Positions 1 to 36,381 of a DNA stretch of 64,000 bases are shown piece by piece. Positions within the stretch are counted from its first letter, which is position 1. Each line of letters opens with the position of its first letter. The stretch covers positions 8,329 through 72,328 of the forward strand of contig JAYEOV010000035.1 of the NCBI GenBank assembly GCA_034723315.1, written 5' to 3'. The position numbers and the translations under genes are program-made. The notes beneath the pieces are model-generated. The model was not told the DNA's origin. It made no database searches and saw only the letters and a program-made list of their open reading frames with translations. Origin of the DNA: Candidatus Omnitrophota bacterium (GTDB taxonomy: Bacteria > Omnitrophota > Gorgyraeia > Tantalellales > Tantalellaceae).

Positions 1-87
1 AAAATATTAATCTTGTTAATAGAGTATTTAAACCCAAAGACTGAATTTGACCCGGCCAATTTTGCAATTCAACCCCTATAGCGCCCC

Positions 88-1692
88 ATGAACAAGAGCT
101 TTATAATCTTTTCAGTCGGCAAGCTGCTGGAAATCCTTGCTTTCATTCTCCTTATCCCGGCGATAATCGCTTTTTTCGAAATCCCGTCAAAAGTGTTCCC
201 CGACATCATTTTCAACTGTAAGCTCCTGGGATTTGTAATCGCGATAGTTTCCTCTTTCGTATGCGGAAACTTTCTTAAACTTATTGGCAGCAAAGAATTA
301 ACCGGAACCGGTATCAGGGAGGGCTTTGCTATCGTTACTTTCGGATGGCTTATTTTAACCCTTTTCGGTTCTATGCCCCTCTTCGTCTATTTCATCTCCC
401 AGGCTGAAACTGTTACGATGAACGTGGGGATCCGCGCGGTGACCGACTCCTATTTCGAGATCATGAGCGGTTTCACTACCACCGGAGCAACCATCCTGAC
501 AAATGTCGAAGCGCTTCCCCGCGGGATACTGTACTGGCGCAGCATGACTCACTGGCTCGGCGGCATGGGAATCGTGACAATGGCCCTCGCAATACTGCCA
601 GCTTTCGGCATCGCCAGTTATCAGATGTTCCGGGGTGAAGTGCCGGGGCCGACTTCCGAACGGCTCAAACCGCGTCTTGCCCAAACCGCCAAGATCCTGT
701 GGGGGGTCTACGCATTGCTGACCCTGGTCGAAATAATCCTTCTGAAATTCGGCGGCATGTCGTTTTTTGACGCGCAGTGCCACGCCTTCGGCACCATGGC
801 TACCGGCGGATTTTCCACGAAAAACACGTCTATCGGGGCCTACAACAGCGCTTACATTGATTGGGTCGTCATCGTTTTCATGTTCTTCGCCGGCATGAAT
901 TTTATCATTCACTACCAGGTTTTATTCGCCAGAAAATGGAACTTTCTAAAGAACAACCGGGAGTTCCGCTTTTACGCCGCAGTTCTATTAATAGCGATCT
1001 TACTCAGCACCGTTGTCCTTCAAATACGCGGTATTGCTCCGGAGGAACAGATCACTAACAGCTTCCGGAGCCAGCCCCTTTCGGAAAACGCGCTCACGAA
1101 AAAAATCGCCACAGAAGAAGCGAAGATCCGGCCGCCCTTTGACACGCTGCGCTACGCGGCGTTTCAGGTGGTATCCATAACAACTACTACCGGATACTCA
1201 ACAGCTGATACGGACATATGGCCTAATTTCATCCGTTTCATGCTTGTGGTCCTCATGTTCTTTGGGGGATGCGCCGGCTCTACCGGCGGCGGGATAAAAA
1301 TGACAAGGATCATGGTGGGTATCAAGGCCGCATGGCGAGAGGTGAAGACGCTTATTCAGCCACGGCTTATTTCGCCCATAAAGATAGCACGTAAGGAACT
1401 AAAGGAAAAACAGGTGGCTAATATCGTAGGGTTTATAGCGCTTTTTTTGGGATGCTTCGTGATCTTTTCTGCGATCATGAGCTTTCTGATAGATGATTTT
1501 ACCACGGCTGTCACATCGGTTGTTGCGACAATGTGCAATATCGGTCCCGGCCTTTCCGGCATCGGCACAACAGAAAATTATGCATGGATCCCGATCTCTG
1601 GAAAATGGATCCTCGCCCTTTGCATGCTCCTCGGACGACTGGAAATCTACACCGTTCTTATCGCCCTTTCCCCGATATCATGGAAAAAATAA
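88..1692 (+). CDS. trkH: TrkH/KtrB family K+ uptake transporter
   Basis: 534 aa polytopic membrane protein with repeated TTTGYS / GGCAGSTGGGIKMTR selectivity-filter-like motifs typical of TrkH/KtrB. Confidence 0.8.
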   Translation: MNKSFIIFSVGKLLEILAFILLIPAIIAFFEIPSKVFPDIIFNCKLLGFVIAIVSSFVCGNFLKLIGSKELTGTGIREGFAIVTFGWLILTLFGSMPLFVYFISQAETVTMNVGIRAVTDSYFEIMSGFTTTGATILTNVEALPRGILYWRSMTHWLGGMGIVTMALAILPAFGIASYQMFRGEVPGPTSERLKPRLAQTAKILWGVYALLTLVEIILLKFGGMSFFDAQCHAFGTMATGGFSTKNTSIGAYNSAYIDWVVIVFMFFAGMNFIIHYQVLFARKWNFLKNNREFRFYAAVLLIAILLSTVVLQIRGIAPEEQITNSFRSQPLSENALTKKIATEEAKIRPPFDTLRYAAFQVVSITTTTGYSTADTDIWPNFIRFMLVVLMFFGGCAGSTGGGIKMTRIMVGIKAAWREVKTLIQPRLISPIKIARKELKEKQVANIVGFIALFLGCFVIFSAIMSFLIDDFTTAVTSVVATMCNIGPGLSGIGTTENYAWIPISGKWILALCMLLGRLEIYTVLIALSPISWKK

Positions 1693-2011
1693 TGTCGGGA
1701 AGGGAGGAATTCGGTTAAAGCGTTTTCCCTATCTCCTTTGGAAAACTTGTGTCGTTTGCGATTTTAAAGCTTAATCTGTCCCCTTTTTTGTTCTCAAAGA
1801 TATCCCCAGGAATATTTGCCCGATCAATTTTTCAAACGATACAAGAACTTGAGAACTTCCAGGCTACAGCGGGTATCAAACAAAGTCCAACGGAGCCCTA
1901 TTAACGCGAATATAAAGGCGAAGGTGGACGCGATCTCCATATTCTTAAAAATTCTTAAAATCTTTGGTTTTCAAGCTGTAGGGTGGTACCTAATGGGGCG
2001 TCCCCGAATAT

Positions 2012-3285
2012 TTACATGTCGGGGATCTGGCTGGAGTCGGCTTTGGAAGATCTTGAAACATAACATGTAAAATTATATTTCACATATCGCACGCCGGGTT
2101 TGATGTTAATGACCCCTGTTTCCTTTCCAATTTTAAAAAGGATAACTATCATGAAGATCAAGAATGTAATGAGGCCTAAAAACGACTTTTTACCTGATGA
2201 GCGTGCTCGAAGGACAGCAATTATACTGGGCAAGATCCCAAAGAGTACCGCTATTCCCAACGCGCCTACCATATCAAGAGCCGTAAGGAATATTTTCGGA
2301 AAGATAAGCGTCACTATGAGCGGCGGTCCGAAAGATAACAGGACTATAAGCAACCTGTTCGACTTTTTGAAATAGTTTGTCAAAAAATCGTCTATAAACT
2401 CCATAAGACCGTATCCGTTGGTGAGATATGAAGTTATTATCGCAAGGAGAGCAAACAGCAGCGAAAATGTAATAAATGCCGGTGATCCTATGATCTGCGA
2501 TAACGGCACGGTGGACGGTAAGTTATTCTGAAAAGCCTCTGTTATGCTTATATTGCCATCGATCGGAAGCGCGCCTAAGCTGACCTGAACCCAAAGGGCC
2601 GTTATAGCATATCCTGCGAGAACACCTATAAGCATTGATGTTAATATAGCGGGTCGCCTCCACCCGAGATCCTTACAAATGTTCGGAATAATGTTATGAA
2701 AGCTTAGCGCGGTTATCAGGACCGGAACGGTACAAGGCAGGAATTTCCAGTCCATGTAACGAAGGCGTTCGGGTCTATATGTTTTTCTGCCATAATTACA
2801 AGAACAGCGAAAGACAACCACAATAAGATCACGAACAAAGCAGTATAGTTCTTAAGTAAGCGCGGATTCATTATGGTGAGCCCCGTGATTATTACAAAAA
2901 ATGTTAAAGTAACTACGACTCCGGGGACGGGAATGGCGATCAGATCTTTTATGATAATTGTGGCACCTGAAAGATAAACCATAAGAAAACCGTAAAAGAT
3001 TATAAGATTTGATATGACAGCGATCCATTTACCCGTAGAACCCAGGTAGGCCTGGTAAAGGCTTGGATAATGGAATTTGGGGTTCCTGGTCATGATCGCC
3101 TCATTCCCTAACGTAACTGCTGTAAAGAACAGAGCCGCTCCTATCAAAAGAATACCTAAAATGGAAGGGATAAATCCGGCAAAACCTGCTTGTATAGGCA
3201 AGCCTAAAATTCCCGCGCCGACAAGATTCCCTGTAATAAAAAAGGCCATCAATATTACTGTTAAAAAAGCAGGCTTTTCATTCAT
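2012..3285 (-). pseudogene. HAAAP-family aromatic amino acid (Tyr/Trp) permease, frameshifted
   Basis: Two overlapping ORFs (2716..3285 and 2012..2821) in different frames. Together they give a ~420-aa TyrP/Mtr/TnaB-like permease (N-term GAGILGLP motif). The frame switch is near 2765-2790. Confidence 0.55.
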
Positions 3286-3443
3286 TTTTAAAACGCTCTT
3301 TAAAATAATATTCGGAAAACAGAACCTGTTCTATCCTGCCCCCTGAACTTTTTTCTGTCTATATTGTTCAAAAACCCTGGTATCAAGTTGTATTACTATT
3401 TCTTCGCACAGTTCACGTAGATCGTTTTTTCCAATAAGAAAGT

Positions 3444-6158
3444 TTATTTTTTCTCCTTGAGCTCTATCAAGGCCTCTCTTGCGCCAAGGCATAGCGCTTC
3501 ATAACCATCTTTAGCGCCCGATTTATAGCCCTCTTTTTCCATGTCTTCGGGATCCAGGGCCTTGCCAAATCTTACTTTTATTGGATGACGTTTGGGGAAT
3601 TTAGACGTTCTTGGCCAGGCCTGATATGTTCCTTCTAATACAACCGGCACGAGTTTTGCTTTTGACTCCTTTGCCAGAATACCGAATCCTTTCTTGAACT
3701 CGTTTATATTTCCGTTCAGCGTGCGTAGACCTTCCGGGAACAGGCACAAATTTCTGCCTTTCTTCAGCACATAATAACAACTTCTCAGGGCCTCCAAAAA
3801 GTGTGAATAAAAATCAAGAGGGATAATTCTTCCTATTTTTATAAGGTTACGGATGATGGGAACAGCAAAATACGGCCTGAAACCAACAAAAAACAGATCC
3901 AATTTAGGAAAATTGGGCAAAGAAGTCGCGACAAGAAACCCATCCAGATAGCTTGTATGGTTTACGTATAATATATACGGGCCGCTTTCGGGGACATTAT
4001 TTCTTCCTTCCACTTTCATGCTGAAAAATATCTTGAAGATCATATAAAACGGGCAAAGAAACAGGAAACAACCCAGCCATACTACGAATCCCGGCTTTAA
4101 ATCGATCTTGTCCAGATTTTCCTTTTTGGGCAGGAGCTGAAAAAGAGTTTTCCAATATTCAGGACCGGAAGTTATCACCCTTTCAGATACAGGCAAAGCT
4201 TCCGTTTCCTCTTTTAAAAGCGCTTCAATGCCCACGATCAGGTCTTTAACGGTAAATGCCCTCCCGACGATCTCAGCCTCTATTTTTATGCCAAATATTT
4301 TTTCAAGACCTGAAGCAAGCTCGATCCTGCCCAAAGAATCTATACCAAGGTCAAGTTCCAGTAAGTCTCCCGGTGTAACGGCCCTCTTGATGGCGGTCTG
4401 TTCTTCAAGATAACTCATTATTTTCCTGCCGGCCCCCGACTCCATTATTTCCAGATCTTCTTTTGACAATTCCCCTGGTCCCGGAACGTATTCTTTTTCT
4501 TCAAGTATTTTAGGCGTATAAAGCTCTTTAACAGCGAACCTCTGGATCTTACCCAGGACAGTGCGCGGAAGCTTTTCAAGCGTTATAAAAAACCCCATGA
4601 TCCTTTTATGAGGAGGCAAGCTTCTCGAAACATTATCGAGTCTTTCCTTGATCACGCTCCTTAAGTTTATTTCTCCGAATTTTCTGAAAAACTCGAGATC
4701 GGGCACAATGACAGCCCACAATACCAGGTTCTCTTCCAGGCCTTTTTTAGCGGGAAGTTCGAATACGCACATCTCCTTAACCGGCGTGTGACTGGAATAT
4801 GCTTCTTCTATTTCTTCAGGGTAAATATTCAAACCAGAACTTAAGACAACCACCTCTTTTAACCTCCCGGTTAAAAATAAATACCCGTCTTTATCAATAT
4901 ACCCGAGATCGCCCGTATGAAACCATCCGTCTTTTATGGCCTGCGCGGTCAGGTCTTTTCTCCGATAATACCCTTCCATGACATTCGGCCCGCGCACGAT
5001 AACTTCGCCTGTGCCTTTTTCGTCTTTATCTATGATCTTTAATTCTACATCGGGGATAGGCAGCCCGACTGAGCCGATCTTCGGCTTCTTTAAAGGATTT
5101 GCGGTCAGGATCGGCGATGTCTCAGTTAGACCGTAACCCTCTAATATCGTAAACCCGAGTTTAAACAACATTCTCTCGGCGCCTTCATCAAGTTTCGCGC
5201 CTCCACTCATAAACAGCCGCATTGACCTTCCGAACCTCCTGTGAATACCATAAAGAAAATAACGCGGCAAATTAATGCCTGTCTTCACCCTGATCTTATA
5301 TAAAACTTCAAGGGTTAGCCTGAACAGAAGATCAACCGGAAAAGGTATTCTTTTTAACGTCTCTGTGATCTTTTGATAAAACGAGTAAAAAATCTGCGGC
5401 ACGGCAACAAAAACGCTCGCGTTCAGTTGTCTCATGGCTTCCAGAACGGTTTCTCCCCGCATGGTCCCGGGATATATAATCCTGCCGCCGCACAAGAACG
5501 GAAATAACATTGTCACCGTTAACGAATAAGCGTGATGCAGGGGAAGGATCGAGATAACGCTATCATCCGGCGTAACCAGGTTCAGCCTGTGTAGAGAATC
5601 GCAGTTAGCGAACAAATTCCTGTGCGAGAGCACAACGCCTTTTGGTTCAGCGGTAGTGCCTGAAGTGTATAAAATACACGCCGGATCATCGCCTCCGATC
5701 TCCACATCCTTAATCTGTTCGGGCGACCTTTTTACCGCGTCCTTAAACGCGTCTGAATCCACAGAAATGACCCTTTTTATTGATGGACATCTCCGGCAGA
5801 TCTCTTCCATTAATCTGAAGGAGGACTCGCCCGTAAAAGCAAATTTGCATTCAGAATCCTTTAAAATATTCTCGACCTCTTCCCGGGTAGATTCGGGATT
5901 GAGGGGGATAGAAATCGCTCCCGCGGATACTGTGGAGAAAAATATCAATGGCCATTCGGGTCTGTTATCCAGCAAAATGGCGATCTTATCATGTTTCTTA
6001 ATGCCCTCTTCTAATAAAGACGCAGAGAGCCTTTCCACGTCTTGTCTGAATTCGCCAAAAAGAACATCGCCCCATTCATTACCTTTATTGTATTGAATTG
6101 CCACTCTGCCGGAATATTCTAACGAGATAGCTTTAAACTTGTCTCTTAAATTCCGCAC
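3444..6158 (-). CDS. Tri-domain fusion: long-chain acyl-CoA/ACP synthetase (AMP-binding) - acyl carrier (PP-binding) domain - PlsC-type lysophospholipid acyltransferase
   Basis: AMP-binding signature YTSGTTAEPKG, GYGLTETS, TGDLG; carrier domain LGIDSLGRIEL; hydrophobic segment, then NHTSYLDG (HX4D) and FPEGLRT acyltransferase blocks. Confidence 0.75.
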   Translation of the reverse strand: MRNLRDKFKAISLEYSGRVAIQYNKGNEWGDVLFGEFRQDVERLSASLLEEGIKKHDKIAILLDNRPEWPLIFFSTVSAGAISIPLNPESTREEVENILKDSECKFAFTGESSFRLMEEICRRCPSIKRVISVDSDAFKDAVKRSPEQIKDVEIGGDDPACILYTSGTTAEPKGVVLSHRNLFANCDSLHRLNLVTPDDSVISILPLHHAYSLTVTMLFPFLCGGRIIYPGTMRGETVLEAMRQLNASVFVAVPQIFYSFYQKITETLKRIPFPVDLLFRLTLEVLYKIRVKTGINLPRYFLYGIHRRFGRSMRLFMSGGAKLDEGAERMLFKLGFTILEGYGLTETSPILTANPLKKPKIGSVGLPIPDVELKIIDKDEKGTGEVIVRGPNVMEGYYRRKDLTAQAIKDGWFHTGDLGYIDKDGYLFLTGRLKEVVVLSSGLNIYPEEIEEAYSSHTPVKEMCVFELPAKKGLEENLVLWAVIVPDLEFFRKFGEINLRSVIKERLDNVSRSLPPHKRIMGFFITLEKLPRTVLGKIQRFAVKELYTPKILEEKEYVPGPGELSKEDLEIMESGAGRKIMSYLEEQTAIKRAVTPGDLLELDLGIDSLGRIELASGLEKIFGIKIEAEIVGRAFTVKDLIVGIEALLKEETEALPVSERVITSGPEYWKTLFQLLPKKENLDKIDLKPGFVVWLGCFLFLCPFYMIFKIFFSMKVEGRNNVPESGPYILYVNHTSYLDGFLVATSLPNFPKLDLFFVGFRPYFAVPIIRNLIKIGRIIPLDFYSHFLEALRSCYYVLKKGRNLCLFPEGLRTLNGNINEFKKGFGILAKESKAKLVPVVLEGTYQAWPRTSKFPKRHPIKVRFGKALDPEDMEKEGYKSGAKDGYEALCLGAREALIELKEKK

Positions 6159-8111: not shown

Positions 8112-8831
8112 TTACGAAAACACGAAATATCTCCACACAAGAAACGCGGTGATCCCGTGAGAAAGGGCCGGACCCCATATATTGCCGAAATATTCATACA
8201 GATATCCCCAGATCGCTCCGGTTAAGGCTATGAGCCCCAGTAAAAAAAGCCCCTCTTTGAAAGGGATGATAAAGAATATGTAGAAATGCACCAGGCTGAA
8301 AAGGACCGCTGTTATCCATATTGAGGCGTTTTTTGGGAGAGCTTTTGAGATCTTCCTCTGGATGAATCCCCGCCAGAATATCTCCTCGCCCAATCCTACC
8401 AGAAAAATAGAAAAGATCAGGGACGAGAAGACCCATATTAGTTCATTCCCCGCTGTAAGAAGCCTGAACCCCAACTCCCCTTGAAAAGAGATCCTTAGGC
8501 CAAAAGATTGAAGAAAGTTGTTTATTTCACCCGCCCTGTCTATATGGTAGCACGTCATTCCCAGAGCCCTCAGGATAAATCCTCCGAAAAAAGCGATGAT
8601 GAGGCCGGTCAAGATGCCTGCGGTGATGGAAGGCCACAAAGATCTTCTTTTAAGGCCGAGAGAGCGCAGGCCTTCCCCTAGAATGCCGATTTGCCAGACC
8701 AGGGGGATGGAAAACGTAAAGGAAAAGGAGCCGTACACGCCGAAGGCCAGAAGCAAAAGGGGCGCGGCGATCGCCGCGATAGAGACAGCGAAACGGCCTG
8801 TTACAGGTATTTTATATCCGTGGTGTGTCAT
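8112..8831 (-). CDS. CPBP (CAAX/Abi) family intramembrane metalloprotease
   Basis: EEIFWRGF (EExxxR), FSLVHF (FxxxH) and ALSHG motifs in polytopic membrane protein. Confidence 0.7.
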   Translation of the reverse strand: MTHHGYKIPVTGRFAVSIAAIAAPLLLLAFGVYGSFSFTFSIPLVWQIGILGEGLRSLGLKRRSLWPSITAGILTGLIIAFFGGFILRALGMTCYHIDRAGEINNFLQSFGLRISFQGELGFRLLTAGNELIWVFSSLIFSIFLVGLGEEIFWRGFIQRKISKALPKNASIWITAVLFSLVHFYIFFIIPFKEGLFLLGLIALTGAIWGYLYEYFGNIWGPALSHGITAFLVWRYFVFS

Positions 8832-9768: not shown

Positions 9769-12700
9769 TTACGCGCAGATAGTTAGAATTGTATCCTGAA
9801 GATGATGTGTATCCTCGATATCATCCACGATCGGCGGGCAACTGTCAAAATCGGAGAAGAGCTTCTTGATGAGTTCTTCAAGGTTTTCATTTGTCGTGTT
9901 AATGATAATGTCGAATCGTTCGCCCGAAGTCAACCGTTCTTTAAGCTCGTCCGCGTCTCTGGCAGTGACGATATCACCTTTGAATCCTATAACCTTGAGT
10001 TTTCTTATCCCTTCTTCAAAATCGCTTCCATATACCAGGGCCACCTTATTGGCCGAGGCTATCTGCAGTTCCAGGGCTTTCTCATTTCTGGGAAGACTCA
10101 CTTTTAACGCTTCTTTTATATGACAAAATTTTTCATCCATGCGCATCGTTTTCGACATTATCCCTGAGATCAGGCCTTCATCTTCCAGCTGCACAAACCG
10201 TTCATCACCTACCGCATGGCCGGTGGAAATAAGGATCGGGAACTTATGGCCTCTTTCCCGGACTTTTTTCGTCAATATCAAGCCGTCAATAATATCACTT
10301 CCCCTGGCCGGCGGCATGCTCACGTCAAATATGGCAAGGTGGAACTTTAACCCCGCTTTTTCCGCCTCTTCTATCAGATCAAAGGCTTCCTGACCATTCA
10401 CGGCCAGCCAGACATTACAGCCTTCCTCCTCAAGCATGCTTTTAAACTGGTCTCTCTGGAGAAGCTCATCGTCAGCAACGATAATATTCGGCCTGTCTTT
10501 TACGATCTCCTCCGGCTTCCCGTGCAATTCTTCTTCTTCTTCTTCCATCTTAACCGGGACTCGTCTTTTACCCGGCTCAGCTTCCGCCTGCCGCAGATAA
10601 GGAATAAACATCCTGACCGCGGAACCGTCCTTCTCATTGTCAACCGTTATCCTTCCGGCAAGATACGTCAGTATCCTGTGAGCAAGCGCCAGTGAAATAT
10701 TTTTATTTTTCTCCCATTTAAGAACTTCTGCTCCCTTTTCCCCGGCTCCGAGCTCTACCCTTTCCAACTGGCTCTCAGTAAACCGGCAGTAATTATTTCT
10801 GAAAGAAACAATTACTTCTCCGCTTCTTCTGTTACGCTCGAGTTTTATGCTTAATCGTTTTTCCTGCGGATCCAGTCCCTCAACCGGGACCTCGTTAGTT
10901 TCCATCCCAAGGGTCAGGATGTTATATAATGCGAATTTAAAGGCCGCTTCGTCGGCCATGATGAAAATATCCTCTTCCGGCCGGTATAATGTCTCGACTT
11001 CATCAAAGGTGATCGTATATTGCGGGAAAAACCTTTTTGATTTCTTGAATGCAGACGCGATATCCTTAAGGACTTTTGCCACTTCTACCTGCCCCGGCTT
11101 TTTCTCAAAGCTGTCTCCTGCCGGCAGCAGAAGGCGCCCGTCGTCGATTCTTTCTTGTGTCGTGTGGAAACCTGTATATATCTTCTCAATATATTGCCTT
11201 AACTTTTCATTATCAGATCCGGCTGTTTCTTTTATAAGCTTTTCAATCGACGACAACATACCTACCATATTTATCTCTATGATCCTGAGCGTTTCAGCCG
11301 GGGCAACATTTTTTAACATAGCCTGCACCTGCCTTACCGACTCTGCCAAACGAGGCTCATGTAAAGCGGTATCCAGGTCAATATCTTTCATTATGTTCTC
11401 TACCTGTTCCATCAGGTTTTTCACTTTAATGGCCAGGACCGGATCAACGCTCTCCATTGCGGTCTGCATTTGTTTTACCAGGATCATCGCATCTTTAGCC
11501 TGGAGAAGATCAGTCGGGTCCTTGAGGATAATTGTCGGTATATTCTGCATCATCCTTATCATGTTTACTGCCTCATCCATCTGTCCGCTGATCAATTTGC
11601 ACTTTGCCAGGATATCCTCAGGCAGGTCCGGCATAAAAGTCATTATCAATTCAAGATAACCTCTACTTCCGGCTATCGCGTTGTTAAGGTCATGCCACAA
11701 GCTGCCGTATATGTTGTCCTGCGCTTCAGACGCACGGAGTTTTATCCTGTCCAGTCGACGTTCAACCAGAGGGAATTCCATTGTAAATGTCGTCCCGTGC
11801 CCTAACTGACTTTTCGCTTCCGCTGTGCCGTTATGCTCCTGGGCGACATCCCTGACGACAACAAGCCCAAGGCCGGTCCCCATACCGTCATCCCTTTTCG
11901 TATAAAAGGGTTCCCAGATATTTTGCAGGTCTTTTGCCGTGATCCCGCATCCTGTATCTCTAAAAGATACACGCATTACGTCCCTGCCTTTCTCATCCTT
12001 TGTTTTTTCCGTACCGAGAGTCAATTCCTTTGTCTTCGAGTCTCTCATAAACGATACAGCATTCATGATAATGTTAAGGAAAGCCTGTCTTAACCTGCTT
12101 CTATTGGCAATGACCACCTGCCGGTGTTCGCTTAATTCCAGTTTTACCGTTATACCCATACTCTCTATCATTGTCTTTCTCATCTCCAGGACATCCAGCA
12201 GGACTTCTTCGACGGAACAGGGGAGGTTCCCCAAATCCGGCGATCTCGCGAAGCCCAGAAACCTGTCCGTGATATCGGCAATACGCTCTGCTTCCTGTTC
12301 AATAATCGCCAGCGTCCGGATAATCTCTTCCTCTTCCACAAATCCCCCTTTGTACAGGCGGGTGAGGATCCCGTCAACAATATTAATTATGTTAGACGTG
12401 GGATTGTTTATCTCGTGAGTCAGCGCCGCTGTGTTTTCTCCGATCGCTGTAAGCCTTTCAGCCTGGACCAGGAGCGCTGTCTTTTCCTCCAATTTCGCAT
12501 AGGCGTTCTTCAGGGCGTTTTCAGCCTGTCTCCGCTTTGTAATATCCTGCATCTGCACTAAAAAACCAGACGGAACGCCGTTTTCCACGGCCAGGGGCGT
12601 TACCCTGTAATCTATGAAGACCCTCCCTGACTTTGCCTCTCCGGACAATCCGGCTTTTTTAGGCTTATCAAAATCAATTTCGTTTTCGAAGCTGATACAT

Positions 12701-15405
12701 TCTCCTTTACGAACCCTGTCTTTTTCCGTACCTATGATAATATCAAGAAAATCGAAGAGATTTAATACTTCTCTTTCTTTCCCAAAATCGGCAATGCCGT
12801 TTTCTTCTAAATACGCTCTGTCTACATATAGAAACGCCTTGTTCACATAGGTCAAGCGGCCGTCAGAATCAAAACGGGCGATCCCGATCGGCGATTCTTC
12901 GGAAATTTCCCTGAATTTCTGCTCGCTCTCCCTCAACGCTATCGCCGCGTCTCTGCGCTCTTCTTCCCGTGTAACCGCTTCCGCAAGGATCCCGAAAAGT
13001 TTCATATCACTATCATCAAGTTCAACACTTTCCTTGTATAGCACACAGAGGCTTCCAACGCGCTGCCCGGCGCTATATACCGGAAATCCGATATAGGTCC
13101 TGAACCCGTACTTCGCCACATTGGGATCGGTTTTGGAATAAGCGGTCTCTTTTACATTTCTAACAATATAAGGAAGCCCTCTAAGGCCTTTTTTGATAAC
13201 ATCATAACAGATATGGCCATCCGGTTTATCAACCGGATTATAGTCAGGTGGAGTCTCCCACTGACCTACCGAGCATAACATGCCGCCTTCCATCCTGTTA
13301 TACAAAGCACAGTCTCCGTTTAAAAATTCCCCGCAGGTCCTGGTAAGTATTTGAATATTCTCGTCATAATCGGTCCCGAGCCTGAGAAGTGCGTCATTCA
13401 GCATTAAAATACGTTCTTCTGCCAGCTTGAGCTCTGTGATGTCGCTACCCACACACAGGATCCCGGAGATGTTCCCCTTGGCATCAAAAATCGGCTTATT
13501 GGTCCATGCGATGTAGACCAGTTCGCCATCCTTACGCAAATTTGCGGTCACGTTATTGACATAATACTCGGGGTATTTTCTTATATTCAGGATCATTTCC
13601 TCGAGGTCCTGTCTGGATTTTTTTGTTTCAGGCATGATCGTGCCGATCATATTCCGGCCGAGCAATTCTTTCTCCGAATAGCCCAGAAACATCCGGGTGA
13701 ACTCATTCGCGAAAGTAATTTCTCCGTTCAAGTTCATCCTCAAAATAATGCTGTTGGCGTTCTGGACCAGATCGCGGTATTTAAGTTCACTTTCCCTGAG
13801 CCTTTCTTCCGCCTGCCTACGTGCCATCCCTCTTGAAATAATATCGCCTGCCACACGGAGGATCCTCGCGTCTTTATCACACCAATCGCGGTGCTTTTCT
13901 GTGTCTTCAATACCCATATATCCGACAAGTTCTCCATCTATCGAATACAGAGGCACAATAATAAGAGAAAAAACATTCTGATCCCGCATACTCTCCTTTT
14001 CCGCGGTCGCATCCTCCGGAAGATCATCGGTGCCCCGAATAATTATGTTTTCATTGTTCCTGAGTTTTTTCATCAACCACGGGTATATGGAAGAAACCTG
14101 ATCCTTACGGTTCTCTATCTGCGGTTCTGTATCCGGATCGCACCACTCATATGTGTTATCCATTATGCTGCCGTTTTCCCGGAAGCGAAAAATATACGCC
14201 CTATTCACGTCGACCGCTCTCCCTATAATTTTGAGGATCTGATCAAGGTCAGGGATGGGGCCTTCAACGAACATACTTGATACCTGCGCAAGAGCTTTCT
14301 CTATGTCAAGACGATATGTTAATTCTTCCTCAACCTGACGCTGATCGGCAGAATAGTCTCTGGTGGTTATTTTTTCGGTAAGATCGATAAATTCCGAGAC
14401 CCTGGCCTCATTGAGCAGATTCATCTCTCTTCCTGTCAGGTTCATCTCAGAAGGGAAAGTGCCGGGAAGGTCTATTTTTCTATCGCTAAAGCATTGAACA
14501 AAACGCTTGAATATATCCTGGAACAGGTTAGACTCCTCGTGTGTAAACCCGGCTTTTGCGAATATTTCATGAACAATTGTATCGGCATTTAAATATACCA
14601 GTTCATTTGGAAGATAAATGCCGCGGCCGCCCGCATGCGGCTCTTCTAACCTGTATTCCTTCCTCGTCTCAGTGATGAGCATAAGCTGGCTAATGCTGAC
14701 AAGTTCCCTGAAGTCTCTGGAAAGCCCGGTAGATACAATATCAAGGAACGCGTAAATACAGGAAAGGGGAAGGCCATAATTTTTCTCTGTTACAATCATA
14801 CACTTGCCGGCAAGTATGGCTTCCCGGATCTTCTCGTCATGTTTTTTTTCGCTCTCCGCAGCCATGGATATCGCGCGACCTTCCAGTCTTTCGGCATACT
14901 TTAACTGTTGGAGCTTTTCGAGAAGATCCTTTTGATTTTTTTCACGTTGCGTCAAAAACGTGATCTTATATTGAGGATCCGTACCGGGACTATCGGTTAT
15001 ACAACACCAGTAATCAGCCACCCTTTCTACTGTTCCAAATGTACACGGAACCAGGCGTAATCCAGCTTTTTTGCAATTGACCGCCCGGCTGAAATAAAAC
15101 CTTATCCTAATGTCTTCTATGTTGAAATTTATGCCCAATGATGAAGCGGAGTGGTCGCCCCATTCATTCATTACGTCTATTTTTTTATTACGCATACCTG
15201 AAACAAGGACATATTCGAGTAACGCGATATCTTTGATCTCCTTGTTAAGCAAGGGAAGAAATATGGATTGCGGCGCTATGTTTCTACCAGCAAATCTCAT
15301 GGCATAAGCCGGACTTACGCTTGTTGAAGTAATCAATAATAAAACCGTAATTATTATACTGGTTGCCTTTATTATTAAGCTATTTTTTCTTTTAAACAAT
15401 ATCAT
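9769..15405 (-). CDS. Giant hybrid sensor histidine kinase (1878 aa): N-terminal unknown domain, GAF-PAS-GAF-PAS, HisKA+HATPase, second HisKA-like+HATPase, receiver, C-terminal pseudo-receiver-like domain
   Basis: H-box THEINNPTSNI; G-boxes DTGCGI...GTGLGLVVV; second H-box SLWHDLNNAIAGSRGYLEL and second ATPase-like core; REC domain IIVADDELL...FDVSMPP... Confidence 0.85.
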   Translation of the reverse strand: MILFKRKNSLIIKATSIIITVLLLITSTSVSPAYAMRFAGRNIAPQSIFLPLLNKEIKDIALLEYVLVSGMRNKKIDVMNEWGDHSASSLGINFNIEDIRIRFYFSRAVNCKKAGLRLVPCTFGTVERVADYWCCITDSPGTDPQYKITFLTQREKNQKDLLEKLQQLKYAERLEGRAISMAAESEKKHDEKIREAILAGKCMIVTEKNYGLPLSCIYAFLDIVSTGLSRDFRELVSISQLMLITETRKEYRLEEPHAGGRGIYLPNELVYLNADTIVHEIFAKAGFTHEESNLFQDIFKRFVQCFSDRKIDLPGTFPSEMNLTGREMNLLNEARVSEFIDLTEKITTRDYSADQRQVEEELTYRLDIEKALAQVSSMFVEGPIPDLDQILKIIGRAVDVNRAYIFRFRENGSIMDNTYEWCDPDTEPQIENRKDQVSSIYPWLMKKLRNNENIIIRGTDDLPEDATAEKESMRDQNVFSLIIVPLYSIDGELVGYMGIEDTEKHRDWCDKDARILRVAGDIISRGMARRQAEERLRESELKYRDLVQNANSIILRMNLNGEITFANEFTRMFLGYSEKELLGRNMIGTIMPETKKSRQDLEEMILNIRKYPEYYVNNVTANLRKDGELVYIAWTNKPIFDAKGNISGILCVGSDITELKLAEERILMLNDALLRLGTDYDENIQILTRTCGEFLNGDCALYNRMEGGMLCSVGQWETPPDYNPVDKPDGHICYDVIKKGLRGLPYIVRNVKETAYSKTDPNVAKYGFRTYIGFPVYSAGQRVGSLCVLYKESVELDDSDMKLFGILAEAVTREEERRDAAIALRESEQKFREISEESPIGIARFDSDGRLTYVNKAFLYVDRAYLEENGIADFGKEREVLNLFDFLDIIIGTEKDRVRKGECISFENEIDFDKPKKAGLSGEAKSGRVFIDYRVTPLAVENGVPSGFLVQMQDITKRRQAENALKNAYAKLEEKTALLVQAERLTAIGENTAALTHEINNPTSNIINIVDGILTRLYKGGFVEEEEIIRTLAIIEQEAERIADITDRFLGFARSPDLGNLPCSVEEVLLDVLEMRKTMIESMGITVKLELSEHRQVVIANRSRLRQAFLNIIMNAVSFMRDSKTKELTLGTEKTKDEKGRDVMRVSFRDTGCGITAKDLQNIWEPFYTKRDDGMGTGLGLVVVRDVAQEHNGTAEAKSQLGHGTTFTMEFPLVERRLDRIKLRASEAQDNIYGSLWHDLNNAIAGSRGYLELIMTFMPDLPEDILAKCKLISGQMDEAVNMIRMMQNIPTIILKDPTDLLQAKDAMILVKQMQTAMESVDPVLAIKVKNLMEQVENIMKDIDLDTALHEPRLAESVRQVQAMLKNVAPAETLRIIEINMVGMLSSIEKLIKETAGSDNEKLRQYIEKIYTGFHTTQERIDDGRLLLPAGDSFEKKPGQVEVAKVLKDIASAFKKSKRFFPQYTITFDEVETLYRPEEDIFIMADEAAFKFALYNILTLGMETNEVPVEGLDPQEKRLSIKLERNRRSGEVIVSFRNNYCRFTESQLERVELGAGEKGAEVLKWEKNKNISLALAHRILTYLAGRITVDNEKDGSAVRMFIPYLRQAEAEPGKRRVPVKMEEEEEELHGKPEEIVKDRPNIIVADDELLQRDQFKSMLEEEGCNVWLAVNGQEAFDLIEEAEKAGLKFHLAIFDVSMPPARGSDIIDGLILTKKVRERGHKFPILISTGHAVGDERFVQLEDEGLISGIMSKTMRMDEKFCHIKEALKVSLPRNEKALELQIASANKVALVYGSDFEEGIRKLKVIGFKGDIVTARDADELKERLTSGERFDIIINTTNENLEELIKKLFSDFDSCPPIVDDIEDTHHLQDTILTICA

Positions 15406-15863
15406 GTTTTCCGAATTCTTCCCTTCTTTTTACCGTATTTCAATACTAGATTTTTTAGAATAATAAGTTATTTGCCTTTTTTTTGTGCTAACTCTAATAT
15501 ATTATCATAATTATTTTAAAAGTCAACAAAAATATTTACATATAGTGTATTTGTAAAAAATGAAATATTTAGCATGTTTAGGAGTAAAACTGCGGATATT
15601 TATCTAACTCAGTACTTCAGAAATATTAACAAGGAAAATATTGGAAGTTCAAAAAAACACATATTTATCTCATAACTTCTTTATTGCCCGATATTTAGGT
15701 TCGTAAGCCGCACTGAGGCATTCTTTGACAGACTGAAATCCTTGATCAAATGAAACAGCTATCTGAAGAAATGAAACTCGTCAATGCAAAGCTTTAAAAG
15801 TGGATTAGAATTACGGCCGCATTATAACTTTTTTATTAATAAAAATTGTTAACCTCGAATTGT

Positions 15864-15891
15864 TTGTTATGCTTGTACTAGGTGGGATTTG
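15864..15891. repeat. 28-bp direct repeat (left copy) TTGTTATGCTTGTAnnnnnnGGGATTTG
   Basis: 22/28 identity with 18478..18505; the right copy overlaps the 3' end of the amidase gene. Confidence 0.4.
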
Positions 15892-16181
15892 CATTATTGA
15901 ACACTCTCAAATTGGTCCAAAACTTTATGCAAAACGCGGAAGTCGGGTTAACAATCTCTTACCGTAATGAAGTAATGTTAAATTTACAATAGATAGAATA
16001 ATCCCCTTGTATATTAATAATGTTAAGGTATAGTTAATATGTTGATATTAAATGTATTTGGCTTTGTAATTTTTTACAAATTTATTAAAGGTTTGCTTAG
16101 AAGAAGAAAACAGCCTTGAAGATTTATTTTTTGGTTTTTAAAAAGTTTTTGAAAATGCCGAAACTAAAAAGGCGAATTACG

Positions 16182-17420
16182 ATGAACAAAACAAGAACAA
16201 AGAACAATGGGTTTGCCATGGCGGTCATGGCAGTAATGGTTGTCCTGGTCATGGCATGGGTGGTGATCATAACGCCTGTCCCGCGAGCGCATGCCGACGA
16301 ATGGGTAACGCGGCAAATATCGGATAATACGTATATTGACGCCGAGCCATCTCTTTATAACGGCACCATAGCCTGGGTGCACCATATACCCGCGGGAGAC
16401 TGGCAGCAACGTCATATCTACTACTGGGACGGGACCTCAACCACGCAGATAACGCCGTATGAGAAGTCGACCTACGAAGAGCCATCTCTTTATAACGGCA
16501 AGATAGCTTGGAGGGATGGTTATGTCTACTACTGGGACGGGACCTCAACCACGCAGATGCCGATTCCGGGGGGTGGTCAGCACTCCCCGTCACTTTATAA
16601 CGGCAAGATAGCCTACATTGTCGGAGGCGGTGTATTTGATGTCCACTACTGGGACGGGGGTACGGCTACAAATATATCTAATAATACGGCTGGTACTTGG
16701 TCCGGGTCCCCATCACTTTATAACGGCACCATAGCCTGGCAAACCTGGCAGGATGGTGGTTACGGTATCAACTACTGGGACGGGGGTACGACTACACAGA
16801 TATCCGTTAGTGGCGCCAACCCGTCACTTTATAACGGGACGATAGCCTGGGCGGACAATGGTATCAACTACTGGGACGGGGGTACGACTACACAGATATC
16901 CGTTAGTGGCGCCAACCCGTCACTTTATAACGGGACGATAGCCTGGGCGGGCAATGGTATCAACTACTGGGACGGGGGTACGACTACACAGATATCAGGC
17001 AGTGGCACCAACCCGTCACTTTATAACGGCGATATAACCTGGCAAGGCTCGGATGGTAATGATGATGAGATCTTTTACGCGCGGCTGGCGTCGGCGTGGA
17101 TAGGTGACGCGATAGACTCACTCGGCCTGGCAGGATACACAGAAGCGGAGATACTTGATCTTGCGGACCTGTTCAGTGGTCAGACTTCCGGTCTGGTAAA
17201 CAGCATGGACTGGACATACCTGGCAGGGAACCTTCCGGGAGATACAGGGGGCGAGGTCTATGACATAGGAAACAGCTGGGAATATGACGGTAAATACTAT
17301 ATCAAGCTGGGGAGCGGGCTTGAAGGAACCGGAGTACCTGAGCTGCCGGCAGGCGCGATACCGTTTATCGGTGCGATCTTGTGTTTTGGATTAAGACGGT
17401 TAAGACGTTTTCACAAATAA
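16182..17420 (+). CDS. Tandem-repeat secreted protein with variant PEP-CTERM-like sorting tail
   Basis: Signal peptide; ~9 repeats of PSLYNG[TK]IAW...YWDG[TG]TTTQI; C-terminus VPELPAGAIPFIGAILCFGLRRLRR (PEL-P + TM + basic cluster). Start at the internal Met (MNKTRTKNNGFAMAVMAV) instead of track 16116. Confidence 0.6.
   Translation: MNKTRTKNNGFAMAVMAVMVVLVMAWVVIITPVPRAHADEWVTRQISDNTYIDAEPSLYNGTIAWVHHIPAGDWQQRHIYYWDGTSTTQITPYEKSTYEEPSLYNGKIAWRDGYVYYWDGTSTTQMPIPGGGQHSPSLYNGKIAYIVGGGVFDVHYWDGGTATNISNNTAGTWSGSPSLYNGTIAWQTWQDGGYGINYWDGGTTTQISVSGANPSLYNGTIAWADNGINYWDGGTTTQISVSGANPSLYNGTIAWAGNGINYWDGGTTTQISGSGTNPSLYNGDITWQGSDGNDDEIFYARLASAWIGDAIDSLGLAGYTEAEILDLADLFSGQTSGLVNSMDWTYLAGNLPGDTGGEVYDIGNSWEYDGKYYIKLGSGLEGTGVPELPAGAIPFIGAILCFGLRRLRRFHK
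16764..17045 (+). repeat. 3 x 96-bp near-identical tandem DNA repeats inside the repeat-protein gene
   Basis: Units 16764..16859 and 16860..16955 differ at ~1 position; the third unit is diverged. Confidence 0.7.
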
Positions 17421-17462
17421 AACGGGAAAAACCAAAAGGATGAAAAATCCCCGTTCAAAAAG

Positions 17463-17492
17463 AAACCCGGGTAAGTGCCCGGGTTTCTTTTT
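17463..17492 (+). terminator. Rho-independent terminator
   Basis: AAACCCGGGTAAGTGCCCGGGTTTCTTTTT stem-loop plus T-run immediately after the repeat-protein gene. Confidence 0.6.
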
Positions 17493-17658
17493 GAAACGTT
17501 ATACCTCCCCTTCCCTTTTCTCCGGGACCCCTTCAGGTCCTTGCTCTACTCAGGGTAAACTCTGGCCCTTCCTACGGCTTCCGGAGCACCTTGAATACGT
17601 CTATTTCGCCTGAATCAAGCACAAAATACCCAAAATACGCACGGACTCCTGCCAGAAT

Positions 17659-17747
17659 GTTAGCGGAATGCGGCAGGTACTTTTAGCGAAATACGGCAGT
17701 TTTTATAGCGAACCGCGGCAGTTATCTGTGGCAGAATCCGTCAGTTG
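17659..17747. repeat. Four imperfect ~22-bp direct repeats (TTAGCGRAWNCGGCAGKT), iteron-like
   Basis: TTAGCGGAATGCGGCAGGTAC / TTAGCGAAATACGGCAGTTTT / TAGCGAACCGCGGCAGTTATC / TGTGGCAGAATCCGTCAGTTG, just upstream of the transposase remnant. Confidence 0.4.
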
Positions 17748-17775
17748 TCTCCCCCGGTAAGATCGCTCACCATAG

Positions 17776-18477
17776 TTGACGGAATATCGCTGAGGTAATA
17801 TTATCTTTTCCATAAAACTAAAAAAACCCGTCCTGCATTCGCCAAAACCAAAAGAAATATCCTGCCCCTACTGCGATTCGAAAGATATCATAAAAGCCGG
17901 GACAAGGAAGACCAGGTTCAGGAAAATACAAAGATACTTCTGCAAATATTGCCGCAGACAATTTACGGAAGAAAGATTAAAAGCTAAATCGTACCCGGCC
18001 CCGGCGAAAATAATTCTGAAGGCCAACTCACTTTATAATCTCGGGTACTCGCAGGAAATTGCCGCAAAGTTAATCGATCAACATTAGAAGAGGAAACCCC
18101 CGCAAAGAACGGTCAGCGACCGGGTGAACAAATATTCAAACCCCTGCGCGTATTAGACCTTAAGAAAAGAAGCCGTTAAGCTCCATAAGCCGCGGGAGAT
18201 AATACCGAGCGAAAAACTCCAGCACGGACAAGTCTATAATTTCAAGGTCCATCTGGCAAAGCTCGACCTCATCGAGAAAAGAAAAGTACTGCCGGAGAGA
18301 AAACTCAAAAGGCTAAGGGAATACCTGGAAAGGGTAACCGGCAAAGATCCAAAAGCCAGGCCTTTCCCCCACCATATATTTTCCATAGCGCCGGAAAACA
18401 CACATCAGGAAAAACGCGCCTCAAAACTGAGCGTAGAACTCCTGAAAATAACAAAACAGAGCAAGAAGAACTACGCT
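17776..18477 (+). mobile_element. Decayed IS-like transposase remnant (IS1/IS1595-type N-terminal zinc ribbon, then out-of-frame fragments)
   Basis: Frame 17776..18087 encodes ...CPYCDSKDIIKAGTRKTRFRKIQRYFCKYCRRQFT... with no ATG start. Downstream coding-like sequence (18180..18480) is in another frame, so no intact ORF. Confidence 0.45.
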
Positions 18478-18505
18478 TTGTTATGCTTGTAATTGTTGGG
18501 ATTTG
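18478..18505. repeat. 28-bp direct repeat (right copy)
   Basis: TTGTTATGCTTGTAATTGTTGGGATTTG; pairs with 15864..15891. Confidence 0.4.
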
Positions 18506-35550: not shown

Positions 35551-36381
35551 TTACTCTGAAACGGTCGCCGTAACGAACATAATGACCGTTCTATATTTTT
35601 CGGCCCCCCTTAGAGGCACGGATACTCCCAAAGGCGTTACGCCCGCCTGTTCAAGGCGCCGTTCCACCCTGTCCATTCCGCCTATAGCGATGGTATCGCC
35701 GCTGTTGATCACCACCTGTGTGATGACGGACCTTTCGTATATGCTGTGGTCTTTGCGGATCTCCCCGATGGCCGGCCTCAGGATCATGGTGATCGAACCG
35801 TCGTTATTCACCCTGGGCAGGACTTCAAGGATGTTCCCGACGGGTTTTCTGTCGACCCAGTTGACGCCTATATTGCCTTTATCCGTTATGATCGTTCTGG
35901 GGAAGACCTCTTTGAGGGCGACCTGTGTCCTTGCGGGCTCGCCGCTGAGCGTCTTTACCGTCATCTGTGTGCGGATATCCGCGGATTCGCTTTTACTCAG
36001 CAGCCAGAAGATCTCATCGAACCTCTCCGGGGGAATGACGCTCTGACCGGCGTCTAATCCCGCCTCACCCATAAGGGTATCGGTCATTTCCACGACAAGA
36101 AGTTTTATCTCGACCTGTTTTCGCGGATTGTCAAGCCGGTCCAGCACTTTCCGGATATGTCTCAAGTTGGCCGGGTAATCGCGGACGATCAGGCTGTTGG
36201 TGGCAGAGTGAAGTGTGGTCTTCCCCTCTTTGCTGTTGAGATGGACTACTGCCGGGTAAATAGATACGGCGTCACCATGCTGTATCTTGAAGACCTCGAC
36301 CTGAAGGTCTTCGGAACCGGCGGATGCCGGAGGAGCCGTGATAAAAAAGGATATTATTATGATAAAAAGTGTTTTTCGCAT
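35551..36381 (-). CDS. Minimal secretin-family protein (NolW-like N domain + secretin C domain, 276 aa)
   Basis: Signal peptide; N domain ...NSLIVRDYPANLRHIRKVLDRLDNPRKQVEIKLLVVEM; C domain SVITQVVINSGDTIAIGGM...VTPLGVSVPLRG resembling the secretin core. Confidence 0.5.
   Translation of the reverse strand: MRKTLFIIIISFFITAPPASAGSEDLQVEVFKIQHGDAVSIYPAVVHLNSKEGKTTLHSATNSLIVRDYPANLRHIRKVLDRLDNPRKQVEIKLLVVEMTDTLMGEAGLDAGQSVIPPERFDEIFWLLSKSESADIRTQMTVKTLSGEPARTQVALKEVFPRTIITDKGNIGVNWVDRKPVGNILEVLPRVNNDGSITMILRPAIGEIRKDHSIYERSVITQVVINSGDTIAIGGMDRVERRLEQAGVTPLGVSVPLRGAEKYRTVIMFVTATVSE

Follow-up and report, generated by a model that had tools for sequence, protein, structure and literature searches.

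The stretch of DNA analysed here, a window of 64,000 nucleotides from a Candidatus Omnitrophota bacterium, contains at 16182..17420 (+) a gene for a 412-residue protein (plus stop codon) composed of a predicted signal peptide, a seven-bladed β-propeller, a pre-anchor domain and a tripartite tail with the motif VPELP. Our interpretation, to which we assign a probability of roughly 70%, is that the product is a surface propeller protein with a PE-x-P sorting signal derived from PEP-CTERM, that it is processed by an exosortase and that the near-identical DNA units within the gene are duplicated blades. The open reading frame (ORF) is genuine, as had been assumed in an earlier annotation made from the letters alone (the original prediction): its product is 100% identical to P0001, which is named 'MAG: hypothetical protein U9R44_03355 [Candidatus Omnitrophota bacterium]'. 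The same metagenome-assembled genome (MAG) encodes a paralogue, P0002 (U9R44_01985), that is 51% identical to the window protein. Relatives and their loci are designated by P and L numbers, respectively.

The tail has the three parts of a sorting signal. The signature V385-P386-E387-L388-P389 (PE-x-P; 17334..17348, +), identified in an alignment of 20 tails, is followed by the 15-residue hydrophobic segment AGAIPFIGAILCFGL (residues 390-404; 17349..17393, +), with a mean Kyte-Doolittle value of 2.1, and by a basic cluster, RRLRRFHK (residues 405-412; 17394..17417, +), that ends the protein. The complete C-terminal end reads GTGVPELPAGAIPFIGAILCFGLRRLRRFHK; it had been given as ...RRLRR, but the true end is ...RRLRRFHK. 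In the alignment P, E and the second P were invariant (20/20), V was present in most tails, and the linker and hydrophobic segment were variable. The nearly invariant, contiguous Pro-Glu-Pro of PEP-CTERM (PMC1569441) is absent, the window protein having P386-E387-L388-P389 and the family the consensus P-E-[LVMIF]-P, while the hydrophobic transmembrane (TM) segment and the C-terminal basic cluster that follows it are both present.

The PEP-CTERM model TIGR02595 (cut-off 16 bits) gave the tail no score, and in the absence of a match to a PEP-CTERM model the tail cannot be classified as a PEP-CTERM member. The original prediction had named a C-terminus that fails to score with such models as grounds for its rejection, and formally those grounds exist. 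The model itself performed as it should: classical tails of the distant propeller homologues P0014 and P0028, used as positive controls, scored 29.3 and 31.3 bits, and the classical Omnitrophota tails scored 16.6-24 bits and also passed. Eight VPE-x-P tails in the same run as P0014 and P0028 gave no match. When Leu388 was removed from the window tail in silico, the score rose from nothing for the native tail to 17.6 bits, spanning model positions 1-24 of 24, and a MAFFT alignment of both tail types placed a single-residue gap in the classical tails at the x position. Since the deletion of Leu388 restores a passing score and the classical tails align with one gap, one hydrophobic residue has been inserted between the Glu and the second Pro. 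It had been proposed that Leu takes the place of the second Pro; instead, the Pro persists one position further on (P389). By sequence comparison, then, the tail is a lineage-specific PEP-CTERM derivative with a one-residue insertion. The description of the product as secreted and repetitive, with a tail like that of PEP-CTERM proteins, is upheld by the comparative evidence and fails on the model match. No curated model in NCBIfam 20.0 or Pfam corresponds to the tail, to the pre-anchor domain of about 80 residues or to the exosortase subtype discussed below.

Haft and colleagues list eight attributes of tripartite C-terminal sorting signals (10.1101/2023.06.07.544157, section 5), several of which are evident in the VPE-x-P tails. 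The signal is located near the C-terminus, three or more of its motif residues are nearly invariant (P, E and P in 20/20), and its middle is hydrophobic and its end basic. It occurs repeatedly within genomes (attribute 2): two insertion tails come from the window MAG (P0001 and P0002, prefix U9R44), DAOVKF01 holds seven loci, and the number of distinct tails in ERZ21831086, counted per assembly, is 11 or more. On inspection only, a basic n-region and a hydrophobic stretch were seen at the N-termini of P0001-P0009, P0055 and P0057 (attribute 6). The tail is borne by several unrelated N-terminal domains, namely the propeller, Laminin_G_3, F5_F8_type_C (discoidin) and Lcl_C. Protein pairs that share the signal alone (attribute 7) are provided by the Lcl_C proteins of L005, where SVPELP, a TM segment and a basic end occur without the YYIKLGSG (pre-anchor) domain; such cases are few, and most other members also share the pre-anchor domain. 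Homologues with another signal or none (attribute 8) were also found: the propeller homologues P0014, P0028, P0031, P0046, P0084 and P0100 have a classical PEP-CTERM (PF07589) and others have no tail. Glycine-rich ends of the form ...GGGCF[IL]..[ST]L were observed in the distant propeller homologues P0027, P0045, P0049, P0050, P0051, P0101 and P0114, and P0114 passed the CFI-box model NF041763 (17.4 bits, cut-off 15.9). The CFI-box match and the glycine-rich tails indicate that C-terminal signals of no fewer than three kinds are in use within the propeller family.

The pre-anchor domain (residues 303-382; 17088..17327, +) consists of two helices and β-hairpins with the conserved pattern LPGDT...IGxSW.Y.G.YYIKLGSGLEG, and it had no match in Pfam, NCBIfam or the PDB. 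This YYIKLGSGLEG domain precedes VPE-x-P tails in other Omnitrophota genomes and classical TPEP/VPEP (TPEPAT/VPEPAT) tails in P0137 and P0139 and at loci L016, L017, L020 and L022. About 30 relatives were found with [V/I/A]-P-E-[L/V/M/I/F]-P tails, the distinct tails being distributed by motif as VPELP (13), VPEVP (7), VPEIP (3), APELP (3), VPEMP (2) and IPEFP (1). With the exception of one partial protein labelled Dehalococcoidia, all named protein matches were from Omnitrophota/Omnitrophica MAGs. A scan of 185,579 species-representative genomes for the C-terminal module returned 14 loci in five genomes, four labelled Candidatus Omnitrophota and one 'uncultured bacterium', and the nearest relative in this collection was 79% identical over the module. 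Six assemblies (the window MAG, JAGLTU01, DAOVKF01, JBDRFA01, ERZ21831086 and ERZ21831104) had insertion tails only, 26 in total, and three had classical tails only (JAMWCX01 with seven, JAGVGJ01 with two, and CALKWO01). None of these nine assemblies, sampled partially through the flanks of the matches and not as whole genomes, had both types. All-or-none use of a tail type is the pattern expected if the signal and its processing enzyme change together. In the searchable literature, Omnitrophota were mentioned together with PEP-CTERM only incidentally and in a single paper, and the same was true of Omnitrophota and exosortases.

A candidate for the processing enzyme is encoded at L001 (ERZ21831086 contig_3), where the gene for P0121, a 339-residue Exosortase_EpsH protein, has three cargo genes at distances of 2.5-6.6 kb. 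An ISNCY transposase is located between the cargo genes and P0121, which is followed by genes for a glycosyltransferase, a flippase and a polysaccharide deacetylase. A protein 41% identical to P0121, P0140, is encoded in GCA_023135115.1 together with the cargo protein P0126 (KAS86_01060, 75% identical to the window C-terminal module) and in GCA_030631915.1 (DAOVKF01) together with seven cargo loci, so that, with ERZ21831086, three insertion-type assemblies encode an exosortase of this kind. P0121 passed the generic exosortase model TIGR04178 (cut-off 23 bits) with 42.7 bits, and P0121, P0140, P0141, P0143, P0144 and P0145 spanned 38.6-46.4 bits; PF09721 was recorded on P0121, P0140, P0141, P0142 and P0143. 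The same six proteins came nowhere near the cut-offs of the named subtypes XrtA, B, D, E, H, O, T, V, X and CrtB; on XrtE, for example, the candidates scored 34-42 bits against a cut-off of 150. In the clade defined by these proteins, C232, G234, N276, R279 and H300 are invariant in 15/15 sequences, forming C-x-G, N-x-x-R and His motifs; the catalytic motifs proposed for EpsH are Cys-x-Gly, Asn-x-x-Arg and His-x-x-x-Gly (PMC1569441). The clade is rare. Among 1.84 billion representative sequences searched exhaustively with HMMER, 31 relatives were found at E≤1e-10 and only 185 at E≤1e-3. A word-indexed homologue search with P0121, aimed at an exosortase with the U9R44 tag, returned only two proteins. 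P0141 is encoded in GCA_000954095.1 (JYNY01), which we take to be Candidatus Omnitrophus magneticus. Two further types of gene are conserved beside clade exosortases, one, divergently transcribed, for a PMT_2 (ArnT-like) glycosyltransferase (L006/L007, 2560-3786; L023, 6466-7767) and one for a tyrosyl-tRNA synthetase (L006/L007, 5176-6375; L025, 2760-4037).

By analogy with the PEP-CTERM/exosortase system, the Sec signal peptide would export the propeller protein and the VPELP tail would keep it in the inner membrane until it is processed. A membrane-embedded exosortase would then cleave at the PE-x-P motif and pass the protein on for surface display. The gene for this enzyme would lie in another part of the genome, and the enzyme would most likely belong to the unnamed Omnitrophota clade of P0121 and P0140.

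Several points weigh against this interpretation. Neither the whole protein nor the tail alone matched any sorting-signal model in NCBIfam or Pfam, even at E≤10. As the original prediction had stated, the 64-kb window contains no exosortase gene. Neither phmmer with a relative's exosortase nor a hidden Markov model (HMM) built from 15 clade sequences, with which every ORF of 60 residues or more was searched, detected one, and Pfam placed all window ORFs predicted to have at least three TM segments in other families. Cargo and exosortase genes are adjacent in L001 alone, and elsewhere the evidence is co-occurrence in MAG assemblies, which can be chimeric. Searched with the clade HMM, the flanks of L009-L022 yielded no exosortase, and the adjacency is therefore not general. 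The link between the insertion and one exosortase subclade is proposed from co-occurrence in three assemblies, and the tail count for ERZ21831086 refers to an assembly that may hold more than one genome. The N-terminal h-region, about 20 residues long, could be a signal anchor instead of a cleaved signal peptide. Finally, it is by analogy that the window protein is credited with cleavage, with an attachment chemistry and with display at the surface.

The alternative that best survives these considerations, although it is unlikely, is that the tail is a mere C-terminal TM anchor of a type I membrane protein, in which case the propeller would be periplasmic or on the inner membrane and would undergo no sortase-like processing. 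The tail without a match to any sorting-signal model and the window without an exosortase are both consistent with an anchor. However, about 30 tails that differ in other respects all have P-E-x-P directly ahead of the hydrophobic segment, and a plain anchor needs no conserved motif. Moreover, the PE-x-P tail occupies the same position as the classical PEP-CTERM after the same pre-anchor domain, and PE-x-P tails co-occur with an exosortase clade whose catalytic motifs are intact. These observations favor a PEP-CTERM-derived sorting signal over a simple anchor.

The body of the protein is a seven-bladed β-propeller (residues 41-302; 16302..17087, +), identified with AlphaFold2 and Foldseek. A PSLYNG motif opens each blade, at residues 56, 101, 136, 177, 214, 246 and 278, and the seven PSLYNG and six YWDG motifs give a count of seven repeats, not the approximately nine originally estimated. 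The AlphaFold2 model, calculated from a 40-sequence alignment, had a mean predicted local distance difference test score (pLDDT) of 86.8 and a predicted template modelling score of 0.82. The propeller was closed, with pLDDT values mostly above 90 and of 96-98 over the near-identical blades 5 and 6. At the N-terminus, a helix at residues 9-30, probably the core of the signal peptide, was followed by a low-confidence linker. Residues 303-375 of the pre-anchor region formed a compact domain of two helices and a β-hairpin, and from residue 380 to the C-terminus the pLDDT was below 50, with a low-confidence helix (residues 399-410) over the hydrophobic end and basic cluster. A Foldseek search of the PDB with the whole model retrieved generic propellers only (TolB, BamB, S9 peptidase propellers, the 2gop trilobed-protease propeller and RSL lectin) and gave no lead to function. 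Pfam had no significant match to the whole window protein. The TIGR04275 repeat of NCBIfam was recognized in five stretches with 35.2 bits, below the cut-off of 85 for membership. Among close relatives, P0002, P0004, P0005, P0007, P0014 and P0028 have seven blades and P0003 has eight, as judged from the spacing. Considering the predicted fold and the companion cargo domains, the propeller body is probably a binding or adhesion module.

The original prediction also drew attention to two essentially identical 96-bp units, and these were confirmed. The units at 16764..16859 and 16860..16955 are identical at 95/96 positions, the sole change being A to G at 16855 (Asp to Gly), and they contain a 91-nt exact repeat. 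Tandem Repeats Finder extended the array to 16764..17029 (+; period 96, 2.8 copies, 97% matches), a segment whose coding range begins halfway through blade 4, takes in blades 5 and 6 and ends early in blade 7. A 34-nt exact stretch is also common to blades 1 and 2 of the gene. The DNA of the relatives has blade-coding tandem repeats of 74-84% identity with a 120-bp period, and the window gene, with 97% repeat matches and shorter blades of 32 residues, is the extreme of the family. Tandem duplication of blades giving rise to near-identical blades is a common route of propeller evolution. The near-identical units fit recent duplication or gene conversion between neighboring blades with retention of the seven-blade fold.

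The suggestion that variation in repeat number could serve phase or antigenic variation found no support. According to this second alternative, the 96-bp units would constitute a contingency locus in which slippage or recombination often alters the number of blades, generating antigenic or functional variants. With their 95/96 identity and 91-nt exact repeat, the units would lend themselves well to unequal recombination, the product of which would still be in frame; the relative P0003 does have eight blades, and the window protein is predicted to be surface-exposed. Nevertheless, we consider a contingency locus improbable. The length of the unit, 96 nt, is divisible by three (32 codons) and the unit lies within the coding sequence, and therefore ON/OFF switching is impossible; the shift in frame or promoter spacing upon a change in repeat number, by which contingency loci are recognized, does not occur. 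The present copy number gives the family-typical seven blades and a closed propeller, with the high pLDDT values noted above for blades 5 and 6, and blade-coding repeats of lower identity (74-84%) are general in the family, which fits ordinary amplification or homogenization of blades. The copy number of a 266-bp array may, in addition, be misjudged in a short-read MAG assembly. Blade numbers varying between six, seven and eight are conceivable, but unsupported. Duplicated blades thus remain our explanation of the repeats.

The resemblance to PEP-CTERM/exosortase systems (EpsH, XrtA; TIGR02595, PF07589; PMC1569441) extends to a tripartite signal, a predicted N-terminal signal peptide, several diverse cargo proteins per genome, a candidate partner membrane protein with C-x-G, N-x-x-R and His motifs, and associated polysaccharide-synthesis genes. 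The proteins and genes are alike as well. The ectodomain of the window protein has no Cys and only 2.6% Lys and Arg and is enriched in Gly, Thr, Ser and Asn, similar to the low content of Cys and basic residues and abundance of Thr, Ser and Asn in PEP-CTERM cargo (PMC1569441). The propeller gene stands by itself between a large upstream region and a strong downstream hairpin, and PEP-CTERM genes are typically single-gene units with a large intergenic region upstream (PMC1569441). Unlike PEP-CTERM, the signal is interrupted (P-E-[L/V/M/I/F]-P) and scores nil on TIGR02595 and PF07589 until the inserted residue is removed. Its hydrophobic segment contains Pro and Gly (AGAIPFIG), whereas that of PEP-CTERM is Leu/Gly-rich, and the window gene has no upstream sigma-54 site.

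The named PEP-CTERM variants used for comparison were VPLPA-CTERM/XrtD (TIGR03370/TIGR04152), VPEID-CTERM/XrtE (TIGR04162), VPDSG-CTERM (TIGR03778), PEPxxWA-CTERM (NF035944), cyano-PEP (TIGR04155) and VPXXXP-CTERM (TIGR04143). As in these variants, a lineage-restricted change of the motif is uniform across the cargo of a genome and accompanies a divergent exosortase clade. Their models miss the VPE-x-P tails at E≤10, yet most of them match the classical control tails; VPLPA-CTERM/XrtD and VPEID-CTERM/XrtE figured among the model matches of the analysis. The VPE-x-P pairing of signal and enzyme differs from theirs in resting on co-occurrence in three assemblies only. The propeller resembles recently amplified propellers and the TIGR04275 (beta_prop_Msarc) proteins in its tandem units of about 32-45 residues, its nucleotide-level repetition and its closed seven-bladed fold. 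Unlike recently amplified propellers, only two to three of its blades are near-identical and the others have diverged, and unlike TIGR04275 proteins it falls well short of the whole-protein cut-off. There is no Cys in the PE-x-P motif, in contrast to the signals of myxosortases (CPBP family), such as MYXO-, JDVT-, Synerg- and CGP-CTERM.

The last of these differences bears on the weakest alternative, in which the sorting signal would be read by an enzyme of another class, a rhombosortase or a CPBP/Rce1-like intramembrane protease such as that encoded at 8112..8831 (-), 7.3 kb upstream of the propeller gene: the CPBP protein did score weakly on the myxosortase core (Mrt_core, 34.2 bits) and on the PEP-CTERM-associated CAAX protease model TIGR03008 (24.5 bits), but both scores are far below the cut-offs (100 and 81, respectively), the PE-x-P motif columns lack the Cys that is invariant in myxosortase-type motifs (10.1101/2023.06.07.544157), the signal derives from PEP-CTERM, the partner of which is an exosortase (PMC1569441), and a 5.6-kb histidine kinase gene on the opposite strand separates the CPBP gene from the cargo gene, making this explanation very improbable. 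The CPBP protease of the window was rejected as the sorting enzyme on the grounds of its sub-threshold scores and the absence of a motif Cys.

The predicted Sec signal peptide (residues 1-38; 16182..16295, +), recognized by inspection, has a basic n-region, a hydrophobic stretch, AMAVMAVMVVLVMAWVVII, and a c-region ending in PRAHA followed by DE, and cleavage is predicted at this AHA/DE-type site. Upstream of the gene is a 776-bp AT-rich intergenic region (15406..16181, +; 28% GC), in which no sigma-54 site (TGGCAC-N5-TTGCW) was detected with up to three substitutions allowed, and a sigma-70 scan gave consensus matches on the minus strand only. About 35 nt past the stop codon there is a strong terminator-like hairpin with an A-run and a U-run on its flanks (17452..17498, +). 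This hairpin was overlooked by a simple terminator scan and became clear upon folding of the RNA (-39.7 kcal/mol, z = -7.2, none of 200 shuffled sequences being equally stable); a search of Rfam over 15300-18500 gave only sub-threshold, terminator-like matches. Further downstream, a 22-bp tandem repeat with the consensus TAGCGAAATGCGGCAGTTCTTA (2.8 copies, 78% matches) occupies the intergenic positions 17661..17723. At about 17850..18480 (+) lies a decayed frame that begins with a zinc-ribbon-like CPYC...CKYC and has two in-frame stops, possibly a remnant of an insertion sequence or a regulator. Transposases also flank cargo genes in related loci: ISNCY and DDE_Tnp_1 in L001, an IS21-type element in L002, Y1_Tnp, IS110 and DDE in L004, and IS3 and IS66 in L005. 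At positions 1..4127 (+), L005, an Omnitrophota-like contig that also holds VPE-x-P cargo genes, encodes the end of a protein called at 5544 residues that has no Pfam match.

The gene divergent from the propeller gene, at 9769..15405 (-), encodes an 1878-residue hybrid sensor kinase with GAF, PAS, HisKA and HATPase domains and a C-terminal receiver, and a large dCache/PAS/GAF kinase resembling this product was found near the L023 exosortase. Elsewhere in the window, two overlapping ORFs (2012..3285, -) together account for a split Trp/Tyr permease, the segment 2716-3285 corresponding to profile positions 8-175 and the segment 2012-2755 to positions 182-385, which likely reflects a frameshift, a pseudogene or a sequencing error. 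An unusually short, 276-residue secretin-like protein (Secretin_N and Secretin) is encoded at 35551..36381 (-), adjoining genes for DUF4126, AsmA/DUF748-like and DUF2062 proteins.

A broader scheme can be put forward more tentatively, and we would judge it somewhat less probable than even. The VPE-Phi-P-CTERM signal and the P0121/P0140-like clade of enzymes (approximately 330-360 residues) may be a co-evolved signal/sortase pair in which the recognition register has shifted by one residue. The cargo (β-propellers, LamG, discoidin and Lcl_C, most with the hitherto undescribed pre-anchor domain of about 80 residues) might then form the adhesive surface coat in one lineage of ultra-small, probably host- or partner-dependent Omnitrophota.

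The finding is incremental, not surprising, given that the pattern of lineage-specific PEP-CTERM variants with models, and in some cases exosortases, of their own is already established. The exosortase cleavage site and the attachment chemistry are still poorly defined, and a natural one-residue insertion in the near-invariant PEP, uniform in the sampled cargo, amounts to a ready specificity experiment on how exosortases read their signal. Automatic annotation overlooks these surface proteins altogether, the window protein and its relatives being labelled 'hypothetical', and because the tail matches no model, predictions of the surface proteome of these Omnitrophota come out too small. The Omnitrophota are an uncultured phylum thought to be attached to, or dependent on, other cells. 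The propeller, LamG, discoidin and Lcl_C domains look like binding modules, which makes the proteins that carry them candidate attachment proteins.

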